A DNA stretch of 64,000 bases from Shigella phage Sf17: the sequence record MF327004; one strand, 5' to 3'. The notes under the pieces were generated by a model, which searched no databases, was not told the DNA's origin, and saw nothing but the letters and a program-made list of their open reading frames with translations. This document shows, piece after piece, positions 2,337 through 55,077 of the stretch. Made by a program: the position numbers and the translations under genes. Numbering within the stretch: the first letter of the stretch is position 1; every line of letters begins with the position of its first letter.

Positions 2337-2783
2337 ATGGCTATGTATCAGCAATATTCCCCTAAAGATGTAGTTTGTAGCTGGAATGGCATTGCCATTG
2401 AAGGTTTTGCACCAGACTCATTCTTGCGTCTTCAGAGAAACTCTCCACTTGTTACGCAAGTTGTAGGTGCAGGTGGTCAAGTGGCTCTGACAAGAAATGC
2501 AGACAAGACAGGTACGATTGAGATTGAGCTAATGCAGACTTCTCTATCAAACCAGATGCTTTCTGCAATTCAAGCTAAACAAGATGACATGGAACTTGAA
2601 GAAGATATCTCATCTAACTTTGTAATTTACGACCCATCTGGTTCAGTTCTGGCAACAGGTATTAATGCTTGGTTGCAAGAGCTTCCACAGATTGAATTAG
2701 GTCGTGACCAGAACTCGAAAACTTGGATTTTCGGTTGTGAGAAGTTAGACTACACTTCAACAATCCCTGCGTCAAGCGTTTAA
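2337..2783 (+). CDS. putative tail tube protein
   Basis: 148-aa ORF between sheath-like ORF and tail chaperones, followed by a terminator. Confidence 0.5.
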   Translation: MAMYQQYSPKDVVCSWNGIAIEGFAPDSFLRLQRNSPLVTQVVGAGGQVALTRNADKTGTIEIELMQTSLSNQMLSAIQAKQDDMELEEDISSNFVIYDPSGSVLATGINAWLQELPQIELGRDQNSKTWIFGCEKLDYTSTIPASSV

Positions 2784-2796
2784 CAAATCCTAATAA

Positions 2797-2830
2797 GGGG
2801 GAGACTGTAAAAGGTCTTCCCCTTTTGTGT
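2797..2830 (+). terminator. rho-independent terminator after tube gene
   Basis: GGGGGAGAC - 8-nt loop - GTCTTCCCC followed by TTTTGTGTTTTT. Confidence 0.5.
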
Positions 2831-2859
2831 TTTTATAGCATAACTTTTAAGGAATCACA

Positions 2860-3261
2860 ATGAAGACTGAAACTAAAATGATTAACGGCAAGAAGGTAAC
2901 TATTATTCTTCTTGGAGCAAGAGATGGTATCCGTATCTCTATGAAACTTGGTAAAGCAGTTGTACCAGCATTTGCACAGATGTTCTCTGGTTTAACCTCT
3001 AAAGATGGGGAAGCTAAAATCCCATTTAAAGAACTCGTTGAAGCTTGCTTTGAAAAGGTTGACGAACTAGATATTGATGCAATGGCAGAGACACTATTTC
3101 AGGGGGCAACAGTTAACGACTTCCCACTGAAAATTGATAGTTACTTCCAAGCGAACTACGGTGAATTTATTGACTTCTTAGCTTTTGCTTTGGAGGCAAA
3201 CTTCGGAAGTTTTTTCGAGGCAAGCATTTTCAAAAGCCTAACTTCTCAGCAGGAAGCTTAA
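2860..3261 (+). CDS. tail assembly chaperone (G-like, frame-0 product)
   Basis: 133-aa ORF immediately upstream of tape measure gene; carries slippery heptamer T_TTT_TTC about 45 nt before its stop. Confidence 0.5.
   Translation: MKTETKMINGKKVTIILLGARDGIRISMKLGKAVVPAFAQMFSGLTSKDGEAKIPFKELVEACFEKVDELDIDAMAETLFQGATVNDFPLKIDSYFQANYGEFIDFLAFALEANFGSFFEASIFKSLTSQQEA
3210..3216 (+). other. putative -1 programmed ribosomal frameshift site (T TTT TTC)
   Basis: X_XXY_YYZ heptamer in frame 0 of ORF 2860-3261; the -1 frame is stop-free from 3210 through ORF 3270-3497. Confidence 0.5.
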
Positions 3262-11542: not shown

Positions 11543-12718
11543 ATGCCAGTAGGTGAAATTCAAATTAGTGCATTGCCTCAAGCCTCGTTGCCTATTGATT
11601 TAAGTGATATCTTTCACCTTAAGCAAGGTATTGAGGATAAACGATGCACACTTGAGCAATTACTTGCTCCACACGCATCTTTAAGAAATAACCCACACGG
11701 TGTTACAAAGGTTCACGTAGAACTTGGTAATGTTGTTAACGCACTCCAATTAGTGGCTGCTAATAACTTGTCAGACGTGGTTAGTGTTGAAGAGGCTAGG
11801 CAGAACCTTAATATTCTATCAAGTGATGAAGTTAATGCTCTTATCCAGAATCACATTAATGACAAGAATAACCCTCACAACACTAACAAGATTCAAGTAG
11901 GTTTGTCTAATATTCAAAACTGGACATATTCAAACTCTTACTCTGAAGACGCTGATAAGTATGCTACTGCAAAAGCTGTGAATGCTTTATATAGAGCTAT
12001 CCAGAATAGCTATCCAATCGGTACTATTCATTTGTCAGTTAACCCTGCAAACCCATCTACATATTTACTTTGTGGTGGTACTTGGGAGTTAGTTTCTAAA
12101 GGAAGGTCTCTTGTCGGTTATGACACAGATACAAGACCTGTAGAATCAGTATTTGGTTCTGCTACTGTAACACTTACACAAAATAACATTCCAAGTCACA
12201 CACACTCTGTATTACTAACTGGTGGTGGACACTCCCACAATGCAACAGTAGTAATTTCTAACTTTGACTATGGGACTAAGAGCACATCAAGTTTTGATTA
12301 TGGTTCTAAGGCCACAAACGACTCTGGAAGCCACGCTCATAACGTTAATGGTTCTGTAAGCAGTGCTGGTAGTCACAGCCACAGGATTCCATTGAGGGGT
12401 TCTGACAGGGGTGGTGTGAATGCTATTACGGCAACGGCTGATGCAGGTGTTGGTAATGCGTCATATACAGACTTTGATGGGGTTCACACACATACCTTCA
12501 ACGTTAATTCTTCAGTTGGTGGTAACCACTCTCACAGTGTGTATATCGGAGCACATGGACACAGTGTTGCAATTGGTTCACATGGACACTCAGGTACTGT
12601 GACAGTTCAATCTTCTGAGCACACTCACTCAGGTACAACTGGTGCATTTGGTGCTGGACAAGCATTTAATATTGAGCAACCTTCTTATGTTGTATATGTT
12701 TGGAAGAGAACTGCGTAA
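11543..12718 (+). CDS. tail fibre protein (short) with His-rich distal domain
   Basis: 391 aa; C-terminal third carries repeated HxH motifs (GGGHSHNAT, GSHSHRI, GNHSHSVYIGAHGHSVAIGSHGHSG); ends ...VWKRTA like the next fibre. Confidence 0.55.
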   Translation: MPVGEIQISALPQASLPIDLSDIFHLKQGIEDKRCTLEQLLAPHASLRNNPHGVTKVHVELGNVVNALQLVAANNLSDVVSVEEARQNLNILSSDEVNALIQNHINDKNNPHNTNKIQVGLSNIQNWTYSNSYSEDADKYATAKAVNALYRAIQNSYPIGTIHLSVNPANPSTYLLCGGTWELVSKGRSLVGYDTDTRPVESVFGSATVTLTQNNIPSHTHSVLLTGGGHSHNATVVISNFDYGTKSTSSFDYGSKATNDSGSHAHNVNGSVSSAGSHSHRIPLRGSDRGGVNAITATADAGVGNASYTDFDGVHTHTFNVNSSVGGNHSHSVYIGAHGHSVAIGSHGHSGTVTVQSSEHTHSGTTGAFGAGQAFNIEQPSYVVYVWKRTA

Positions 12719-12763: not shown

Positions 12764-15142
12764 ATGGCTGAATATAAGCTAAGTGAGCTAAACAGTATTG
12801 ATACAGTTCGCTCAGAAGATTTACTTCACCTAAGAATTATCAAAAGGTCTGATATGCTAGGTGATGAAGACCGTAAAATGACCTATGCAAATTTCCTTGC
12901 CTCTTTCAAACTAGAAAGATTCTTACAACTAACTGGTGGGGATATGACAGGGAATCTTGGCATCGTTAAATTAAGATACGGTGGAAAAGACTTATTAGAC
13001 CCAACAGGTTCTTCTGAGGTTATTCTCGGTGACACTGCCAAGACCTTTAGAATTAATGCAAGTGCTTTAAGATTAACTGTAAATGATGCCACAAGGTCTG
13101 CAACAGTTTATCACACACTTAATAAACCATCTCCTAATGAATTAGGTATGAGAACTAACACTGAAAATGATGCAAGATATGCTATGAAGGAAACTGAAAA
13201 TACCTTCTTGGCAAGACAAATCATTAATATCAACGGTGTTGGTTTGACACTTAAAAGTATCTTACCAGATGGTGGAGCATATATTGAAGCAAGAGATTCA
13301 AATAATGCTTTGAGATTCACAGTTGGTAACTTGACTTCTGGTACTGATGTTACATTAGTTAACAGCAAAGGTGCTACGTTGACTCTTGGTACAAACTCTG
13401 TTAGTGTTGACAAGAACTTTGAAATCAATGGTCAGGTTCAGCCTAATAACTGGAATAACCTTGATGCAAGATTCTTTACACAGACTGCTGCTGACCAGAG
13501 ATTTGCACGACTTAATGCAAGTAATAACTTTGTTGGGGTTAACAACTTCAACGGGAAGACTTACGTTATTGCAGATAGTAATGCACTTAACTTAAGAGCG
13601 GCTACAGAGAATGCTGCATTATTTATGCGTGGTTATAACAGTGCTGGGACAGGTGCTTGGTATGTAGGTCAACCAGATGGTACGCAGTCTGAGGTTGTTT
13701 TAGCAAACCAGATGACAAATGTTAACTTGAAAATTGCTACAGAGTTTTCATTTAACAAAGCTATCAACGTAACTGGTCAGGTAAAACCAAGTGACTTTGC
13801 AAACTTTGATACAAGATATGTTCCAAGCTCTTTAACGAACGTTCTTGCAAGAACTAATGCTGCAAACGTTTTTACTAACCCACAAACTATTGTTACTACA
13901 GATGCGGCTTTCACATTGCAAAGTGGGACAGCTAATTCATCACTGTATATTGTTGGTGCTAATGCAGACGGCAATAGACGTTGGTATGTTGGTAACGGTG
14001 AAGGTAGCAGACCAAATTCCCTGTTCCTATACAACTATTCAAGTGGTGGTGTGCAGTTAGAAATTGCTGAGACTTTCATGTTTAATAGAAGCGTATCAGT
14101 ATCTGGTCAGGTTCAGCCTACAGATTGGACAAACTTTGACTCAAGATATTACACACAATCTGCTGCAAACTCAAGATATATGTTGTCTGGTGTGTCTGGA
14201 ACTGGAACAGAAGTAGGTGATGCAACAGGTATTGCTTGGAATTCAAAAACAGGTTTGTACAGTGTTACAAATTCAACTGGTGGGTCTACTCACTTAGTTT
14301 ACCAAATGCACCTTGGAGTTGGTACATCTACACCGACTGCACAGTTTAAATTTAACTACAAGAATACTGGAATCTATTATAGAACAGCAAGGGATGGATT
14401 TGGTTTTGAAGAGGTTTGGGCTAAAATCTACACAGACCAAGACAAACCTACACCCTCTGAACTTGGTGCTTACACCAAGGCTGAAGTAGACCAACGTATT
14501 GCCTCTGCGGTAACTGATTCTACAGACCTCAAGAAAGTGTATCCAGTAGGAATTGTGACGTTCTTTGCTTCTAATGTCAACCCAAATACAGCTTTCCCAG
14601 GCACTACTTGGACTTACTTGACAGAGGGTGCAAACAGAACTATTAGAATCGGTTCTGCAAATGGTTCCGATGTGAAAGGGCTTGGTGGTGCTGATACAGT
14701 TGCATTAAGTGTTGGTCATATTCCTGCACACACTCATAGCTTCTCTGGAACAACAAGTACATTTGATTATGGCACTAAGTACACAGACGCTCAAGGTGCT
14801 CACGACCATGACAGAGGTAACATGGAAATCTCTGGTGACTTTGGTTTCTTCAGAAGTGATGCAAATAGCTTCTATACAGCAAGTGGGGCATTCGCTATCT
14901 CAGGTTCACAAGCCTCTAGGGGTTATACTGGTTCACAATTCACTTATGGTACACCTGTCAACTTCTACGCATCAAGAACTTGGACAGGGAGAACAAGTTG
15001 GGTAGGTGCTCACGGTCACGGTGTAGGTATTGGTGCTCACAACCACACATTCAGTGGTAACACTGGTGCAACTGGTTCTGGTGCAGCATTCAGTGTTCTT
15101 AACACTTACATTAAATTAATGGCTTGGGTAAGAACTGCATAA
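12764..15142 (+). CDS. tail fibre protein (long), probable receptor-binding fibre
   Basis: 792 aa; three internal copies of a ~110-aa module (INGQVQPNNW.., VTGQVKPSDF.., VSGQVQPTDW..); C-terminal HxH tracts (AHTHSF, AHGHGVGIGAHNHTF); terminal WVRTA shared with ORF 11543-12718. Confidence 0.6.
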   Translation: MAEYKLSELNSIDTVRSEDLLHLRIIKRSDMLGDEDRKMTYANFLASFKLERFLQLTGGDMTGNLGIVKLRYGGKDLLDPTGSSEVILGDTAKTFRINASALRLTVNDATRSATVYHTLNKPSPNELGMRTNTENDARYAMKETENTFLARQIININGVGLTLKSILPDGGAYIEARDSNNALRFTVGNLTSGTDVTLVNSKGATLTLGTNSVSVDKNFEINGQVQPNNWNNLDARFFTQTAADQRFARLNASNNFVGVNNFNGKTYVIADSNALNLRAATENAALFMRGYNSAGTGAWYVGQPDGTQSEVVLANQMTNVNLKIATEFSFNKAINVTGQVKPSDFANFDTRYVPSSLTNVLARTNAANVFTNPQTIVTTDAAFTLQSGTANSSLYIVGANADGNRRWYVGNGEGSRPNSLFLYNYSSGGVQLEIAETFMFNRSVSVSGQVQPTDWTNFDSRYYTQSAANSRYMLSGVSGTGTEVGDATGIAWNSKTGLYSVTNSTGGSTHLVYQMHLGVGTSTPTAQFKFNYKNTGIYYRTARDGFGFEEVWAKIYTDQDKPTPSELGAYTKAEVDQRIASAVTDSTDLKKVYPVGIVTFFASNVNPNTAFPGTTWTYLTEGANRTIRIGSANGSDVKGLGGADTVALSVGHIPAHTHSFSGTTSTFDYGTKYTDAQGAHDHDRGNMEISGDFGFFRSDANSFYTASGAFAISGSQASRGYTGSQFTYGTPVNFYASRTWTGRTSWVGAHGHGVGIGAHNHTFSGNTGATGSGAAFSVLNTYIKLMAWVRTA

Positions 15143-15150
15143 TTACCTTG

Positions 15151-15179
15151 TTGACTAACTGTCAAGATGGTGTTAATAT
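15151..15179 (+). promoter_or_regulatory. sigma70-type promoter TTGACT-17-TAATAT overlapped by 10-bp inverted repeat
   Basis: -35/-10 hexamers with 17-bp spacer 9 nt after fibre stop; inverted repeat CAAGATGGTG (15163-15172) / CACCATCTTG (15197-15206) overlaps it; about 50 nt upstream of ORF 15229. Confidence 0.45.
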
Positions 15180-15228
15180 TTCTTAGTAGGTATTCTCACC
15201 ATCTTGGCTCAAGAAGTAAGGTGATTAA

Positions 15229-15423
15229 ATGCCAACCATTCTAGCAATCCTCATGAAAAACCTTGGGGCATTCTTTTGGAAGCTTCTTTTTTCTCTTCTC
15301 AGTGAATACATGATTGAAAAAGTGTTCTTTAAGCTTGCAAGATACCTTGCGAGTAAAACAGATACACCTATTGATGATGAATTTGTAGATACCTTGGAAA
15401 AGGCTTTTAAAGGTGAGAAATAA
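15229..15423 (+). CDS. small protein with hydrophobic N-terminal segment (possible membrane protein)
   Basis: 64-aa ORF with own promoter and GGTGA SD; N-terminal ILAILMKNLGAFFWKLLFSLL. Confidence 0.4.
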   Translation: MPTILAILMKNLGAFFWKLLFSLLSEYMIEKVFFKLARYLASKTDTPIDDEFVDTLEKAFKGEK

Positions 15424-15797
15424 TGAAGTGGCTTGAAGATGCTTTTAAGAATAATATTGGTGCAATCGTTGTAGGTATTTTCAGTGTAATTGGTATGTAC
15501 ACTACAATGCAGGTCTCTGATGGTAAACAGGAAGTGTCTATCACAAATAAGTTACAGCAGTTGGATGGTTACTCAAAAGGTAACTATTCAGCTATTCGTG
15601 ACTTACAATCTGATATGAAGCTCCTACAATTAGGGATGGAGAACCAGAAAGTTCAGCTAGAGAATGTTAAGGGAGAAAACGCTAAGTTGACTAAGACCCT
15701 TGATAAGTTCTCTGACAGTGTTAACAACTTAGCACAATCTGTATCAGCTTTGCAAGCAATTACAGAACAAAATACCCAAAGCACTAAAAAGAAATAA
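15423..15797 (+). CDS. membrane-anchored coiled-coil protein
   Basis: 124 aa; N-terminal hydrophobic helix IGAIVVGIFSVIGMYTT then heptad-like region; start overlaps previous stop. Confidence 0.4.
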   Translation: MKWLEDAFKNNIGAIVVGIFSVIGMYTTMQVSDGKQEVSITNKLQQLDGYSKGNYSAIRDLQSDMKLLQLGMENQKVQLENVKGENAKLTKTLDKFSDSVNNLAQSVSALQAITEQNTQSTKKK

Positions 15798-15802
15798 TTC
15801 TA

Positions 15803-15830
15803 AGGCTCCTTTTTACGGGAGCCTTTTTTG
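15803..15830. terminator. terminator at convergence of + and - blocks
   Basis: GGCTCC - loop - GGAGCC followed by T6; sits between the last + strand structural ORF and the thyA stop on the - strand. Confidence 0.55.
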
Positions 15831-15833
15831 TTT

Positions 15834-16733
15834 CTACTTACCTACTGATAAAGGTGCTTCAATCTTACCAGCATGTTTATACCCTTTCAACCCACCTAGG
15901 AAGTCATCTGCTGTCATATGTCTCAAGTCTTCAAGAGACTTCAAATCTTGATGAATTTCAAACTTAGGTGCTGGGAACTCTTCATTACCAAGAAGCTGAA
16001 AAACCTGTGACATATGGTTCTGGTAGATTTGAGTATCACCATAAGTCCCTACCAGATATCGCGGTGTATACCCCGTCAGTTTACACAACACTTCCAAGAT
16101 AAAGGCATAGGAAGCAATGTTAAATGGTAATCCTAAGAACGTATCACAAGAGCGCTGATACCATTTCAAATCTACCTCATTAGTGTTCGAGATGTAAATC
16201 TGAAAAAGTACATGGCAAGGTGCTAATGCCATAGAGTTACTTGATATATCTGCTGCATTCCATGCGTTAACGAGCATGTAACGGTCTGTAGGAGACTTTC
16301 TCATCTTCTCTACAAGATTACTCAACTGGTCTACAACAACTCCACCATGACCTTCGTAGGCTCTCCATTGGACTCCATAGATTCTTCCTCCAGCGTCCTC
16401 CAGCCAATCATTCTCTGTAGCATAGGTTGTTTTCAACCAACGTTTAAAATCATCTGTCCAGATAGTCCAACGCTCTCCGTCATTCTCCCCCCAAGTTCTG
16501 TAACGCAAATGGCCTAGTTGGTTTTCACCGTTCATAAACCATAATGCTTCACCGAGGACTTGACGCATAAACGTTTGTTTTGAGGTGATTAATGGAAATC
16601 CACTACGCATATCAAAACGGAACTCAGGTGGAGCAAAGGTAGAAATCACTGAGCCAGTTCTGGTTTTACGCAACTCACCAACTGATAAAACATGGTTTAA
16701 AATAGCTTTGTAGCTTACATCTGCTTGTGACAT
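15834..16733 (-). CDS. thyA: thymidylate synthase
   Basis: 299 aa; LAPCHVLFQIY and YQRSCDTFLGLPFNIASYA match the ThyA active-site signature; ATG at 16731-16733. Confidence 0.85.
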   Translation of the reverse strand: MSQADVSYKAILNHVLSVGELRKTRTGSVISTFAPPEFRFDMRSGFPLITSKQTFMRQVLGEALWFMNGENQLGHLRYRTWGENDGERWTIWTDDFKRWLKTTYATENDWLEDAGGRIYGVQWRAYEGHGGVVVDQLSNLVEKMRKSPTDRYMLVNAWNAADISSNSMALAPCHVLFQIYISNTNEVDLKWYQRSCDTFLGLPFNIASYAFILEVLCKLTGYTPRYLVGTYGDTQIYQNHMSQVFQLLGNEEFPAPKFEIHQDLKSLEDLRHMTADDFLGGLKGYKHAGKIEAPLSVGK

Positions 16734-18911: not shown

Positions 18912-19211
18912 TTAATCTGCCAGCCTTAAGTTAAAGTTTACACCAAGTTTTGTACAAGCATTAAGCATGTACTCTAAAGAAATCTTTTGAGGGTCGTTAA
19001 TGATATTTGACACACGACTCTGTGAGATTTCACAAACAGTTGCTACTTGAGCCTGAGAAAGTTTTAGCTTCTCAATCTCTTTAGAGAATCTGAAAGATAC
19101 AAAATCTTTCATCTCTTCTATATCCATTGGACAGATATAACTCTCCATTTCCGCCTCTCTATCAGCCTCCCAAGAATCTTGAGGTGCATATGGGTCAAAG
19201 ACTTCATTCAT
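18912..19211 (-). CDS. helix-turn-helix domain protein (possible transcription regulator)
   Basis: Segment LKLSQAQVATVCEISQSRVSNII resembles an XRE/Cro-type HTH. Confidence 0.4.
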   Translation of the reverse strand: MNEVFDPYAPQDSWEADREAEMESYICPMDIEEMKDFVSFRFSKEIEKLKLSQAQVATVCEISQSRVSNIINDPQKISLEYMLNACTKLGVNFNLRLAD

Positions 19212-19409: not shown

Positions 19410-19790
19410 TTATAAACCCATGCAGTGACGATTTTCAATAAAGTATTGAACACCTTTGAAAGACTCACGCATAAAATTATCTTTCACATCTTCTACAGTT
19501 TCGATACCTTTACTATCAAGAAGGTCAACGTTCTGAGTAACCATCTCATCTGCTAATCTGTCATAGTAATCTCCCATAAAATGGTAGTTGTAGTCAACCA
19601 TCTTATCAGTCATTTCTTGAACAGTCTGAGCAGATAACGGTTTAGTTAACTCTCCAGCATTTGATGCAATTTTCTGTACAATCTTACAAGATTCTAAAGC
19701 AACACCACTAAAGTTTGCTTCAGGCATCTTCATAGCTGCTGCACTAAAACTCATACCAAGAGCAATGATACCAACAAGTAACTTTTTCAT
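19410..19790 (-). CDS. secreted/periplasmic protein
   Basis: 126 aa; N-terminal signal-peptide-like MKKLLVGIIALGMSFSAAA. Confidence 0.45.
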   Translation of the reverse strand: MKKLLVGIIALGMSFSAAAMKMPEANFSGVALESCKIVQKIASNAGELTKPLSAQTVQEMTDKMVDYNYHFMGDYYDRLADEMVTQNVDLLDSKGIETVEDVKDNFMRESFKGVQYFIENRHCMGL

Positions 19791-19906
19791 AACTACCTCC
19801 TATATAAAATTTTGTATACATTTGAGTATAAAAATAAGCTATAACACCTGACTTGTCAACAGATTTTATAGCTTATTTGGCAGATTTTTTATAAGGCTAC
19901 TGCCAT

Positions 19907-19965
19907 CCTTCCGCACCCGACCTGACCTCGCCCAACCTTACCTGACTGAACCACACCCGACCAAA
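19907..19965. repeat. phased pentanucleotide (NNACC)n tract 1
   Basis: About 11 consecutive in-phase pentamers, + strand nearly G-free; left flank GGCTACTGCCATCC. Confidence 0.7.
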
Positions 19966-20004
19966 CATCACTTAAAAACCCTTTTCAAAGACTCTTAAGT
20001 GATG
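19966..20004. other. hairpin A (CATCACTTAA - 19 nt - TTAAGTGATG)
   Basis: Perfect 10-bp inverted repeat capping tract 1; second copy at 21499-21537. Confidence 0.6.
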
Positions 20005-20033
20005 TAATCGAATTTTTATGTAGCTCCGATTAA

Positions 20034-21417: not shown

Positions 21418-21497
21418 AACTACCCTCACCAAACCGGACCAGACCCAACCCAGCCATACCAGACCATACCACACCCAACCGAACCGAACCTTACCGA
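21418..21497. repeat. phased pentanucleotide (NNACC)n tract 4
   Basis: 15 consecutive in-phase pentamers taccc tcacc aaacc ggacc agacc caacc cagcc atacc agacc atacc acacc caacc gaacc gaacc ttacc. Confidence 0.75.
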
Positions 21498-21498
21498 G

Positions 21499-21537
21499 CA
21501 TCACTTAAAAACCCTCTTAAAAGACTCTTAAGTGATG
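21499..21537. other. hairpin A, second copy
   Basis: CATCACTTAA - 19 nt - TTAAGTGATG, near-identical to 19966-20004. Confidence 0.6.
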
Positions 21538-21758
21538 CTGGTGAGTACCCGTTGGTTTATGCTGCTCAGTATACTCACCAAATTTTCTATGTCAACAACT
21601 TTATATTAAAAATTCTCTGACTACTGCATTTACTACAAATGATAACAGAGTAAGGGCTAAGGCTGATTTGTATGTTATGCTTAACAGTTTACTTATGAAG
21701 TAAGATAATGATAAAACAACAAAAACAAACAGGATAATTGCGCTAAACATGCTAACCT

Positions 21759-54566: not shown

Positions 54567-54914
54567 ATGACGTTTAAAGAATTTTGTCAAGCAGCTTTTG
54601 TAATCATCTTCTTAACAGGTGTTGGTGCTTGGGGAGGTTACACTTACAAGACCAGCCAAGTTAATGAAAAGGAGCTAACTAACCAGAGACTGGTAAGTGT
54701 TGCTAAAGATGCTTATCAAGAAGGTTTATCAAATCTTAGCTCCAATTACAAAAATGATTTGAAAGATGTGCTTGCTAAAAACAAACACACCAAAGAGGTA
54801 TTGAACTATGAAAAAACTAAGACAGTCTTTATTAATGATTGTGCTACTGAGCCTTATGTCAGGGTGTTCAACGAGCAAAGTGAGCAGTACCTTCAAAAAC
54901 TCCCAAGTAAGTGA
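54567..54914 (+). CDS. putative i-spanin (inner-membrane spanin subunit)
   Basis: 115 aa; N-terminal transmembrane segment AAFVIIFLTGVGAWGGY then charged helical periplasmic part; o-spanin-like lipoprotein gene starts inside it in another frame. Confidence 0.45.
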   Translation: MTFKEFCQAAFVIIFLTGVGAWGGYTYKTSQVNEKELTNQRLVSVAKDAYQEGLSNLSSNYKNDLKDVLAKNKHTKEVLNYEKTKTVFINDCATEPYVRVFNEQSEQYLQKLPSK

Positions 54915-55077
54915 GAGTGACAAGTACACTCAAGAAGAAGCACGATATGAGGTTAAAGGCACTAAAGGTGCAGACCTTGCAAGTGCTCTTGAGTTTTATC
55001 GTGATGGTTACTATGAATGTACTATTAAGGCAAACAATTTGATTGATATGATTTTGTTAGGGAATAAGCAGCAATGA
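54808..55077 (+). CDS. putative o-spanin (outer-membrane lipoprotein subunit)
   Basis: 89 aa; MKKLRQSLLMIVLLSLMSGC lipobox (MSGC); starts within the i-spanin gene (+1 frame) and extends beyond it, with AAGAGG SD. Confidence 0.45.
   Translation: MKKLRQSLLMIVLLSLMSGCSTSKVSSTFKNSQVSESDKYTQEEARYEVKGTKGADLASALEFYRDGYYECTIKANNLIDMILLGNKQQ

Follow-up and report, generated by a model that had tools for sequence, protein, structure and literature searches.

In the window, by which we mean the whole 64,000-nt stretch of Shigella phage Sf17 analysed here (a Mooglevirus, or Felix O1-like myophage, 98.7% identical to Shigella phage Sf19), the tail-fibre gene is followed on the same strand by two small genes, which are closed off by a terminator shared with a convergent gene. 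The spacer between the fibre stop and the first small gene contains a candidate promoter and a conserved hairpin, while an Rz/Rz1 pair and a separate endolysin gene lie elsewhere in the genome. The features are as follows.

15140–15142, plus strand: stop codon TAA of the tail-fibre gene, read from the sequence
15143–15224, plus strand: possible outer helix in read-through RNA (15143–15152 with 15215–15224 in the MFE fold)
15151–15179, plus strand: candidate sigma70-type promoter with extended -10 (sequence and scan, 9/12 plus TG)
15161–15208, plus strand: conserved hairpin (fold, 98.6% of cells paired, one U-A to C-G change)
15229–15423, plus strand: gene for a 64-aa protein, assigned to the PM2 P18 family by phrog_402, PF26925 and hhalign against PM2 gp l
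15423–15797, plus strand: gene for a 124-aa protein (phrog_4038, E 8.5e-71; no Pfam family)
15802–15825, both strands: bidirectional intrinsic terminator that closes the unit (terminator scan)
15834–16733, minus strand: thymidylate synthase gene, convergent with the unit and sharing terminator 15802–15825
54567–54914, plus strand: i-spanin gene, Rz (tblastn with the Michonne Rz-like spanin, 98% identity)
54808–55077, plus strand: o-spanin lipoprotein gene, Rz1, overlapping the i-spanin gene (tblastn with the Michonne o-spanin, 98%; signal ...LMSGC)

Both small open reading frames are real and conserved genes. Each is preceded by a Shine-Dalgarno sequence and shows the pattern across codon positions that real genes have (position 2 > position 1 >> position 3), and the two overlap by one base (TAATG), the start of the 124-aa frame falling on the stop of the 64-aa frame, which suggests coupled translation. 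A preliminary description of this DNA had credited both products with hydrophobic N-terminal segments, and this is borne out: the best 19-residue Kyte-Doolittle means are 1.51 for the 64-aa protein and 1.62 for the single hydrophobic segment (residues 11–29) of the 124-aa protein, both borderline, with lambda S105, T7 gp17.5 and T4 T as a rough yardstick only. In all Ounavirinae lineages examined the order is fibre gene, P18-like gene, orthologue of the 124-aa protein and convergent thyA; an intrinsic terminator between the last two was checked in most, not all, of these lineages. That of the window combines a G+C-rich stem with a U tract, and its equivalent is annotated in Felix O1 (as t79/t80), in wV8 and in Michonne.

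Consistent with a 2007 report of P18 homologues in Felix 01 and RB49 (PMC1950889), the 64-aa protein (Felix O1 ORF78, Sf19 gp57, of the RB49 Dc5 family) is by sequence comparison a member of the PM2 P18 lysis-factor family. It matches phrog_402 (E 1.1e-21), as does PM2 gp l (8e-14), and PF26925 ('Phage_PM2_Gpl') is recorded on proteins 98% identical to it. Pairwise BLASTP alone gave no match between the 64-aa protein and gp l; hhalign of the 64-aa family alignment against gp l gave a probability of 96.2% (E 2.7e-9). We infer that gp l is P18, with PM2 ORFs k and l corresponding to genes XVII and XVIII. Members are small (nearly all of 60 cluster representatives have 50–85 aa), and the protein of the window combines a hydrophobic N-terminal helix with a conserved motif, KT-x-T-x-x-DDE, which in the family takes the form (K)T/S-x-T/N-x-x-D-D/N-E, with T44, D49 and D50 nearly invariant among 41 diverse members; AlphaFold2 predicts a helix at 2–43, a loop, and a second helix at 50–60. 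The PM2 lysis system of P17 and P18 (genes XVII and XVIII) is that of Krupovic, Daugelavicius and Bamford (2007), as far as it is related in PMC1950889, PMC6356626 and PMC9502842; P17 acts on the cytoplasmic membrane and P18 on the outer membrane, for the disruption of which it is needed at lysis, a role known for PM2 only (PMC6356626, PMC9502842).

The likeness to PM2 extends beyond the protein itself (same PHROG and Pfam families, hhalign 96%). In both phages its gene is found where a late operon ends, overlapping that of a small neighbour which combines an N-terminal membrane helix with a tail prone to coiling; in PM2 this neighbour is gp k, a membrane helix and a coil, whose gene overlaps that of gp l. 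However, the gene order is reversed, the partner has 124 aa here against 53 aa in PM2 and no detectable sequence similarity to P17 (hhalign 0.3%), and the tailed-phage homologues of gp l carry about 13 extra hydrophobic N-terminal residues. An endolysin and Rz/Rz1 are also present here, whereas PM2 is described as relying on host lytic factors.

P18-like genes occupy lysis positions across several unrelated phage groups, and a second small membrane protein is usually adjacent. In Krischvirus the gene stands between the gp37 fibre gene and a T4-type holin gene t; in viral metagenome contigs it follows a Peptidase_M15_3 endolysin gene and precedes one for a 110-aa protein with a membrane helix and a coil; in Vibrio phages it follows a gene for a protein with a lysozyme-like domain; and in T7-like contigs it occupies the gene 17.5 slot together with a small membrane protein, before homologues of gp18 and gp19. 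Exceptions are found in Grimontviridae and Lahexavirus, where the P18-like gene sits amid structural genes without a lysis neighbour, and in Proteus phage YP1. The layout at our locus recalls T4, with gp37 (the distal fibre), gp38 and t (the class III holin), and Krischvirus/RB49, with gp37, Dc5 and t: a gp37-like fibre gene leads to a small gene, next to one whose product has (here, is predicted to have) one membrane helix at its N-terminus, and finally to a terminator and convergent genes, and in the RB49 group the Dc5 protein is homologous to the 64-aa protein. Unlike holin T, to which it is unrelated, the 124-aa protein is predicted to form one long helix and not a globular domain, and unlike our locus, phage kaaroe has no promoter-like site before Dc5. 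T7 similarly has a small membrane lysis protein, the gene 17.5 holin, directly after its fibre gene 17, exactly where the T7-like marine contigs carry their P18-like gene; here, by contrast, there are two genes rather than one and no match to gp17.5 (no Pfam match for either protein).

Many Ounavirinae records call the 124-aa protein (Felix O1 ORF79, Sf19 gp58) a 'holin' or 'putative class III holin', a label that draws on architecture only. AlphaFold2 predicts helices at 3–30 and 36–123, and orthologues at 27% identity come after the P18-like gene in Kolesnikvirus and in the Hafnia-phage lineage. In hhalign comparisons the protein was unrelated to the 93-aa protein of Vibrio phage VA-RY-3 (0.4%) and reached only 24%, in a collinear alignment, with the 110-aa partner of the M15-endolysin contigs. 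Membership of the class III holin T family was considered and rejected, there being no Pfam match and an hhalign probability of 1.8% to the T4-type holin T of Krischvirus. Searches of Pfam, NCBIfam and PADLOC with both proteins returned coiled-coil noise or uncharacterised family members only, and a PDB sequence search with the 124-aa family and a BFVD fold search with both models likewise gave nothing informative. The literature searched yielded no experimental work on the 64-aa or the 124-aa protein from any phage of the Ounavirinae, and the PhageMaP text makes no mention of Bas63 genes 28 and 29.

Upstream of the pair, TTGACT (15151–15156) starts at the ninth base past the fibre stop and is followed after a 17-nt spacer by TAATAT (15174–15179), just as the preliminary description had it; TG at 15171–15172 makes the candidate one of extended -10 form, with a predicted start at about 15185–15187. 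Sites scoring 9/12 plus TG number 39 in 13 kb, against 29.4 ± 4.7 expected, so that the match by itself is no better than chance. Among 19 distinct Ounavirinae sequences from three genera, the hexamers are almost invariant (one TTAACT and one TAACAT), the 17-nt spacing and the TG are kept throughout, and indels occur only outside the -35 to -10 stretch. Erwinia phage MM7 has TTGACA, 17 nt ending in TGT, and TAGTTT at an equal distance from the stop, with a different hairpin. In the literature we found no start-site map for any Ounavirinae phage and no RNA-seq for Felix O1-like phages; crude end-point RT-PCR in Felix O1 placed ORF79 at 5 min, ORF78 at 25 min, and fibre ORFs 76 and 77 at 60 min (PMC3185647), in a table that we regard as unreliable because the major capsid gene was also scored early.

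Overlapping the candidate promoter is the perfect 10-bp inverted repeat with a 24-nt loop to which the preliminary description had also drawn attention, formed by CAAGATGGTG (15163–15172) and CACCATCTTG (15197–15206). It is a rare feature, as the 64 kb contain only 8 inverted repeats that are 10 nt or longer and lie within 50 nt. As RNA it would be contained in a lower stem of 12 pairs (15161–15172 with 15197–15208), separated by a 2x2 internal loop from an upper stem of 7 pairs (15175–15181 with 15188–15194) topped by a 6-nt loop; the whole fold has an MFE of -30.5 kcal/mol (z = -4.1), RNAalifold returns the same stems, and 98.6% of helix cells are paired across the alignment. The core from the -35 to the right arm is 88–92% identical across three genera, against 61–68% at third codon positions of both flanking genes, indicating that it is under selection, of a sort that would fit a sigma70 promoter and a conserved RNA hairpin alike, and GGTATTCTCACCATCTTGGCT, downstream of the -10, is invariant in the 19 sequences. 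In the consensus fold the inner stem has TAATAT on its left, and TTGACT can pair with the Shine-Dalgarno region; because the hexamers fall in paired parts of the RNA, their conservation is no proof of a promoter, a coincidence that the preliminary description overlooked. The hairpin is labelled a terminator in one record, a label at odds with the U-tract criterion: it is followed by GGCUCAAG and no U tract, and the terminator scan makes no call there. An Rfam search of the region gave no informative match.

The outer helix listed above contains the Shine-Dalgarno sequence AAGGTGA (15218–15224) in its right strand, and it might mask this site in read-through RNA, the site being unpaired at 0.7% in the long window RNA against 26% in RNA from the predicted start, although it is mostly paired in the short RNA too. 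Occlusion confined to read-through RNA is weakly supported, as the contrast is not kept in Felix O1, wV8, SUSP2 and others (Felixounavirus, Suspvirus). A repeated phage-specific promoter or operator motif was rejected. Matches to the 17-mer AAGATGGTGTTAATATT (5, against 0.37 in shuffles) and to the 10-mer of the left arm (19, against 5) are in excess. Three 17-mer matches that were read fall within genes, where they spell K/Y-D-G codons and lack a TTGACT upstream; in sequence, the 10-mer matches follow this pattern too.

How the spacer works may be read in three ways. A promoter for the pair itself, independent of the late operon, was proposed in the preliminary description and is plausible, in view of the conservation, the layout in MM7 and the RT-PCR timing, tempered by the overlap of the hexamers with paired RNA. 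If there were no promoter, the 86-nt spacer would be a conserved RNA structure in a polycistronic late mRNA, controlling the two genes that follow through processing, stability or translation, with the hexamers as its by-products. We rate this as possible but on the unlikely side. One would then expect what is seen in several respects: the pairing of both hexamers in the fold, a hexamer match at chance level, the invariance of GGTATTCTCACCATCTTGGCT, which a promoter alone does not require, the Hafnia-phage lineage with only a terminator and no promoter-like site at this place, and the lack of any promoter here in the list given by the Felix O1 authors. One would not expect invariance of the 17-nt spacing and TG with indels only outside the -35 to -10 stretch, retention of the promoter layout by MM7 despite its different hairpin, or detection of ORF78 and ORF79 before the fibre ORFs (PMC3185647), nor is the Shine-Dalgarno occlusion conserved between genera. 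The preliminary description had also called the palindrome operator-like, and one could imagine a phage repressor, for example the Cro/C1-like helix-turn-helix protein encoded 3 kb away (18912–19211), binding its arms and switching the promoter, since the arms are perfect, bracket the -10 and the predicted start, and belong to a class of repeat that is rare in the window. This we consider very unlikely: 34 bp separate the centres of the two arms, an uncommon distance in a dimeric operator; nowhere else between genes in the 64 kb does the half-site recur, other matches being coding K/E-D-G codons; the only change within the arms, a C to T on the left, breaks the symmetry of the DNA and keeps a U.G pair in the RNA; an inner-stem pair changes from U-A to C-G, which is compensatory as RNA; and relatives have ordinary terminator hairpins at the equivalent place. 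For these reasons an RNA hairpin is the better reading of the palindrome.

Taken together, 15151–15825 probably constitutes a compact unit of lysis genes with which the tail-fibre operon ends, served both by a promoter and by read-through transcription. Its two small proteins, whose translation is probably coupled, would be anchored in the inner membrane by their predicted N-terminal helices. The 64-aa protein would act as a homologue of P18, which in PM2 works with the membrane-puncturing P17 and aids breakage of the outer membrane (PMC6356626, PMC9502842), and its 124-aa partner would most likely serve as holin, or in the timing of lysis, for the soluble endolysin whose gene lies elsewhere in the genome. 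Transcription would probably come in two ways, from the late fibre genes by read-through and from the host-type promoter; because the -10 and the start site lie within the hairpin loop, the hairpin can form in read-through RNA only, where its probable role is to mark or stabilise the fibre message at the 3' end, or to be a site of processing. Relatives have ordinary terminators in its place. As a lysis module the unit is of a familiar type rather than a new system. The pair was already present in the literature and databases, a prior record that the preliminary description had overlooked. Against the lysis-unit reading, one may observe that Rz/Rz1 are present already, so that a P18-like protein acting on the outer membrane would be redundant, and that the 124-aa protein shares its predicted architecture, and a weak profile similarity, with Rz-like i-spanins.

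The guess in the preliminary description that the two might be of holin/antiholin type is supported as to lysis, through the P18 family and the 'holin' annotations. Alternatively, the 124-aa protein could be an i-spanin-like or other non-holin envelope protein, the holin being another gene product or the P18-like protein itself. Its predicted membrane helix and long coiled helix have the architecture of an i-spanin such as lambda Rz; the Hafnia orthologue scores on Rz-like PHROG families (phrog_739, 2e-7, against an E of only 0.099 for the protein of the window); in Vibrio phages the P18-like gene alone comes after the endolysin; and the original Felix O1 genome paper lists five holin candidates. 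Profile scores of this sort are inflated by coiled-coil composition, however, and in contrast to lambda Rz/Rz1 no o-spanin lipobox ORF was found inside, overlapping or after any of nine partner genes (that of the window and eight related or analogous ones), in a search that detected the positive control, Michonne Rz. As a complete, canonical overlapping Rz/Rz1 pair lies elsewhere in the genome (54567–55077), we rejected a canonical two-component i-spanin and hold the broader non-holin alternative to be unlikely. In some phages, exclusion genes adjoin the receptor-binding fibre gene, as the pair does here, and one might envisage superinfection exclusion, also raised in the preliminary description, or some other early membrane function in place of lysis. 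A host-type promoter candidate is present, and Felix O1 ORF79 was scored maximal at 5 min (PMC3185647), in the same table that scored the major capsid gene early. The family link to P18, an experimentally defined lysis factor (PMC1950889), the repeated adjacency to endolysin or holin genes and the lack of any PADLOC match all speak against exclusion, for which we found no positive evidence, and we think it very unlikely.

Felix O1-like phages are widely used in typing of Salmonella and E. coli, in biocontrol and in therapy, and we know of no holin identified experimentally in them. On the reading of the locus as a lysis-gene unit, the link between ORF78 and P18, together with the recurrence of a second membrane protein in the lysis positions of unrelated phages, narrows the search for the holin to this pair. 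Were the promoter within the hairpin real, it would offer a neat combination of independent and read-through expression for lysis genes. A wider proposal, which we put forward tentatively and think doubtful rather than probable, is that a P18-like protein and a one-helix protein with a coiled tail constitute a widespread, unrecognised two-component lysis module, with dual expression in Felix O1-like phages. Such a module would be common to corticoviruses, Felix O1-like and RB49-like myophages, T7-like marine podophages and others, and since it would coexist with endolysin, holin T and Rz/Rz1 it could cover a step outside the holin-endolysin-spanin scheme, either in breaking down the envelope or in timing lysis; Felix O1-like phages would express it from a hairpin-buried promoter and by fibre read-through, with the hairpin in read-through RNA only. 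For annotation, the 64-aa 'hypothetical protein' can be renamed a P18-like lysis factor, and the 'terminator' given in one record is a hairpin without a U tract.

The two small genes that lie 3' of the tail-fibre gene probably form a lysis module, a self-contained unit that would comprise a candidate promoter set within a hairpin, a gene related to that of the PM2 lysis protein P18, a coupled partner gene and a terminator. Shigella phage Sf19 (Ounavirinae, Mooglevirus) shares 98.7% identity with region 14500-16500, which is matched by 267 phage records, chiefly Felixounavirus, Mooglevirus and Suspvirus; the two ORFs correspond to gp57 ("hypothetical protein") and gp58 ("holin") of Sf19 and to ORF78 and ORF79 of Felix O1. 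Direct reading of the sequence bore out every coordinate in the preliminary description, and the hydrophobic N-termini that it claimed are present in both ORFs. The ORFs share one base (TAATG), a Shine-Dalgarno sequence precedes each, and identity by codon position (~95% at position 2, ~92% at position 1 and ~63% at position 3) follows a coding pattern in both. The features of the unit are as follows.

15151-15156 and 15174-15179, + strand: promoter-like site with extended -10 (TTGACT, 17 nt, TAATAT, with TG before it), from sequence and scan
15163-15172 and 15197-15206, + strand: perfect 10-bp inverted repeat, from sequence
15229-15423, + strand: 64-aa ORF
15423-15797, + strand: 124-aa ORF
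15802-15825, both strands: strong bidirectional terminator ending the unit, from a terminator scan

On the 5' side the neighbours are two genes for tail fibres that carry domains of the gp37 and Gp10_C types, and on the 3' side, on the opposite strand, genes for thymidylate synthase and dihydrofolate reductase. Both fibre proteins (11543-12718 and 12764-15142) have a Gp10_C-like, His-x-His-rich C-terminal domain and finish in ...W(K/V)RTA; Vibrio phage VA-RY-3, whose fibre gene lies immediately 3' of its P18-like gene, has a fibre with the same kind of end (...VWERTA).

The 64-aa protein had no match in a local copy of Pfam, matched phrog_402 ("unknown function") in PHROGs at 1e-21, and has near-identical database proteins that bear PF26925, named Phage_PM2_Gpl. 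A profile search of 1.8 billion representatives returned 60 clusters, nearly all of 50-85 aa, and residues T44, D49 and D50 are near-invariant in this P18-like family. PM2 ORF l (51 aa) matched the family with 96.2% probability and phrog_402 at 8e-14. Homologues of P18 had been reported in "PaP3, Felix 01, and RB49" and in cyanophages (Krupovic and Bamford 2007, PMC1950889); from the homology, and because the small genes still lacking an assignment at the end of the PM2 late operon are ORFs k and l, we infer that ORF l encodes P18. Later papers describe the other PM2 lysis protein, P17, as puncturing or depolarising the cytoplasmic membrane and as a holin class of its own, and assign P18 to the outer membrane (PMC6356626, PMC9502842). 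AlphaFold2 models the 64-aa protein as a long helix (2-43), a loop with a TDTPID motif and a short helix. Two family members, P0190 (101 aa) and P0182 (203 aa), carry two tandem A-x-K-T-x-T-x-x-D-D-x-x-V modules after one hydrophobic segment, and these tandem copies suggest that the conserved soluble module may be the functional unit of the family.

Gene order around P18-like genes elsewhere

PM2: gp k (53 aa, membrane helix and coil) overlaps gp l
Krischvirus kaaroe: distal fibre gp37, P18-like ("Dc5"), T4-type holin t, terminator
IMG/VR contigs L062, L064 and L066: Peptidase_M15_3 endolysin (4e-25), P18-like, 110-aa protein with membrane helix and coil
Vibrio lentus phages: lysozyme-like domain protein, P18-like
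Vibrio phage VA-RY-3: 93-aa protein with membrane helix and coil, DUF5675 protein, P18-like, fibre
IMG/VR T7-like contigs L060, L061, L063 and L065 (~2650-3200 in each): small membrane protein, P18-like, homologues of gp18 (DNA_Packaging_2) and gp19 (T7 terminase)

In the four T7-like contigs the small membrane protein and the P18-like gene fill the slot of T7 gene 17.5 (holin). The small partner in two of them matches holin family phrog_2877 weakly. In Grimontviridae, Lahexavirus and Proteus phage YP1 the P18-like gene sits within the structural module, without a lysis neighbour. As judged from gene order, the recurring theme is a P18-like gene that would be expressed late, in a lysis position, usually together with a second small protein bearing one predicted membrane helix.

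The partner in Sf17, the 124-aa protein, falls in phrog_4038 ("unknown function") and in none of the Pfam families. More than 300 near-identical proteins are in the databases, many called "holin" by transfer; the announcements of phages Moogle and Michonne (Center for Phage Technology) give the counterpart as a putative (class III) holin and describe the lysis genes as dispersed in the genome (PMC4319497, PMC4591319), the Felix O1 paper has gp79 as one of five holin candidates (PMC3185647), and a literature search found no experiment on this protein. In Kolesnikvirus and in the lineage of Hafnia phages, the P18-like gene is followed by an orthologue of 27% identity, and these orthologues have in common a membrane segment NNI-AI-VG and the motif DK(F/L)(S/T)(D/E)SVN-L at the C-terminus. 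The protein is related neither to holin T nor to PM2 P17, and both identities were rejected. AlphaFold2 models the protein as helix 3-30 joined by a short linker to one helix of 88 residues. The protein looks like an i-spanin, and the Hafnia orthologue matches an Rz-like PHROG at 2e-7; a canonical spanin reading is disfavoured, as no o-spanin ORF was found in nine partner genes of this kind, against a positive result for the Michonne Rz control. A canonical overlapping Rz/Rz1 pair is present elsewhere in the window (54567-55077). In the whole window, tblastn with the Michonne endolysin gave no match.

54567-54914: i-spanin, 115 aa, overlapping the o-spanin, 98% identical to Michonne gp090
54808-55077: o-spanin lipoprotein, 89 aa, lipobox LMSGC, 98% identical to Michonne gp091

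Promoter matches at 9 of 12 positions are common (39 in 13 kb by scan vs 29.4 expected). The hexamers, the TG and the 17-nt spacing hardly vary among 19 distinct intergenic sequences drawn from three genera, and indels are confined to the stretch 5' of the -35, the loop and the stretch 3' of the right arm. Compared with Felix O1, wV8 or SUSP2, the window has 88-92% identity in the non-coding core (from the -35 to a little beyond the right arm), more than in the fibre 3' end (62-78%) and at third codon positions in the small genes (61-68%), so the core is under purifying selection; this conservation cannot separate a promoter from an RNA structure, because in the consensus fold the -10 hexamer forms the left strand of the inner stem, and pairing of TTGACT with the Shine-Dalgarno region is possible. 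The sole experimental clue, end-point RT-PCR of Felix O1, placed peaks at 5 min for ORF79, 25 min for ORF78 and 60 min for fibre ORFs 76 and 77, timings to which we give little weight because the capsid gene is scored early in the same table; the corresponding site is absent from the promoter list of that paper (PMC3185647). We lean slightly towards the candidate promoter being active. In Erwinia phage MM7 (L047, ~2394-2470), TTGACA, 17 nt ending TGT and TAGTTT begin 5 nt past the tail-protein stop, followed without overlap by a canonical terminator and then the P18-like gene. This order of promoter, terminator and gene is attenuator-like. A predicted promoter-like site after the fibre gene is frequent within the subfamily.

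The RNA fold exceeds the inverted repeat, with 12 pairs in the lower stem and 7 in the upper, and has a minimum free energy of -30.5 kcal/mol (shuffles, -17.3 +/- 3.2); repeats of this size class number eight in the whole 64 kb, this one included. Over the 19 intergenic sequences the proposed structure is 97.8% paired, falling to 35-55% when the partners are slid. Covariation evidence is thin owing to little variation: one inner-stem pair changes from U-A to C-G, with two sequences broken at that pair, and the 10-bp arms have a single change, C to U, whose resulting U.G preserves pairing in RNA but breaks the DNA dyad. That change, together with the lack of any further intergenic copy of the half-site in the window, disfavours the operator-like role proposed in the preliminary description. 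The terminator label given to the Felix-type hairpin in one GenBank record was rejected, as the U tract is missing. The Hafnia-phage lineage has a canonical terminator at the same position, with no promoter-like site there, and with the MM7 terminator this indicates that a hairpin after the fibre gene is general across the subfamily. Since the predicted start (~15186) falls inside the loop, the hairpin would form in read-through RNA only. In such RNA from the window, 15143-15152 pairs with the Shine-Dalgarno sequence, leaving it 0.7% unpaired vs 26% in RNA from the predicted start, a contrast not conserved in other genera. We see an even chance that the hairpin works at the RNA level on read-through transcripts.

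The literature or databases already contain both genes, the link between P18 and Felix O1, and the "holin" label. Our analysis adds the explicit placing of ORF78 in PF26925 and P18, the recurrent pairing across lineages of a P18-like gene with a second small membrane protein, evidence that disfavours an operator, a T-type holin and a canonical spanin, and a description of the conserved candidate promoter-in-hairpin element, not annotated as such before.

A perfect inverted repeat, (A)CATCACTTAA, 19 nt, TTAAGTGATG(T), occurs in two copies (19965-20005 and 21497-21539), each followed on the - strand by G/T-rich degenerate GGT-type repeats. Both lie between genes of the leftward early region; strong sigma70-like sites (21595-21568 and 19859-19831) and a Cro/C1-like gene (18912-19211) are close by, and the two copies are a stronger operator or terminator-family candidate than the 15163-15206 palindrome. 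An imperfect inverted repeat of 19 nt (19832-19878, 89% complementary) spans the -35 and -10 of the promoter-like site TTGACA-17-TATTTT, which precedes a - strand gene (19410-19790) whose 126-aa product has an N-terminus resembling a signal peptide. The 10-mer CAAGATGGTG, with one mismatch allowed, occurs 19 times in the whole window vs ~5 expected from dinucleotide shuffles, which under-estimate chance matches inside genes; as the matches take the form of (K/E)-D-G-(V) codons, and those of a related 17-mer that were read lie inside genes, this excess most likely reflects codon usage.
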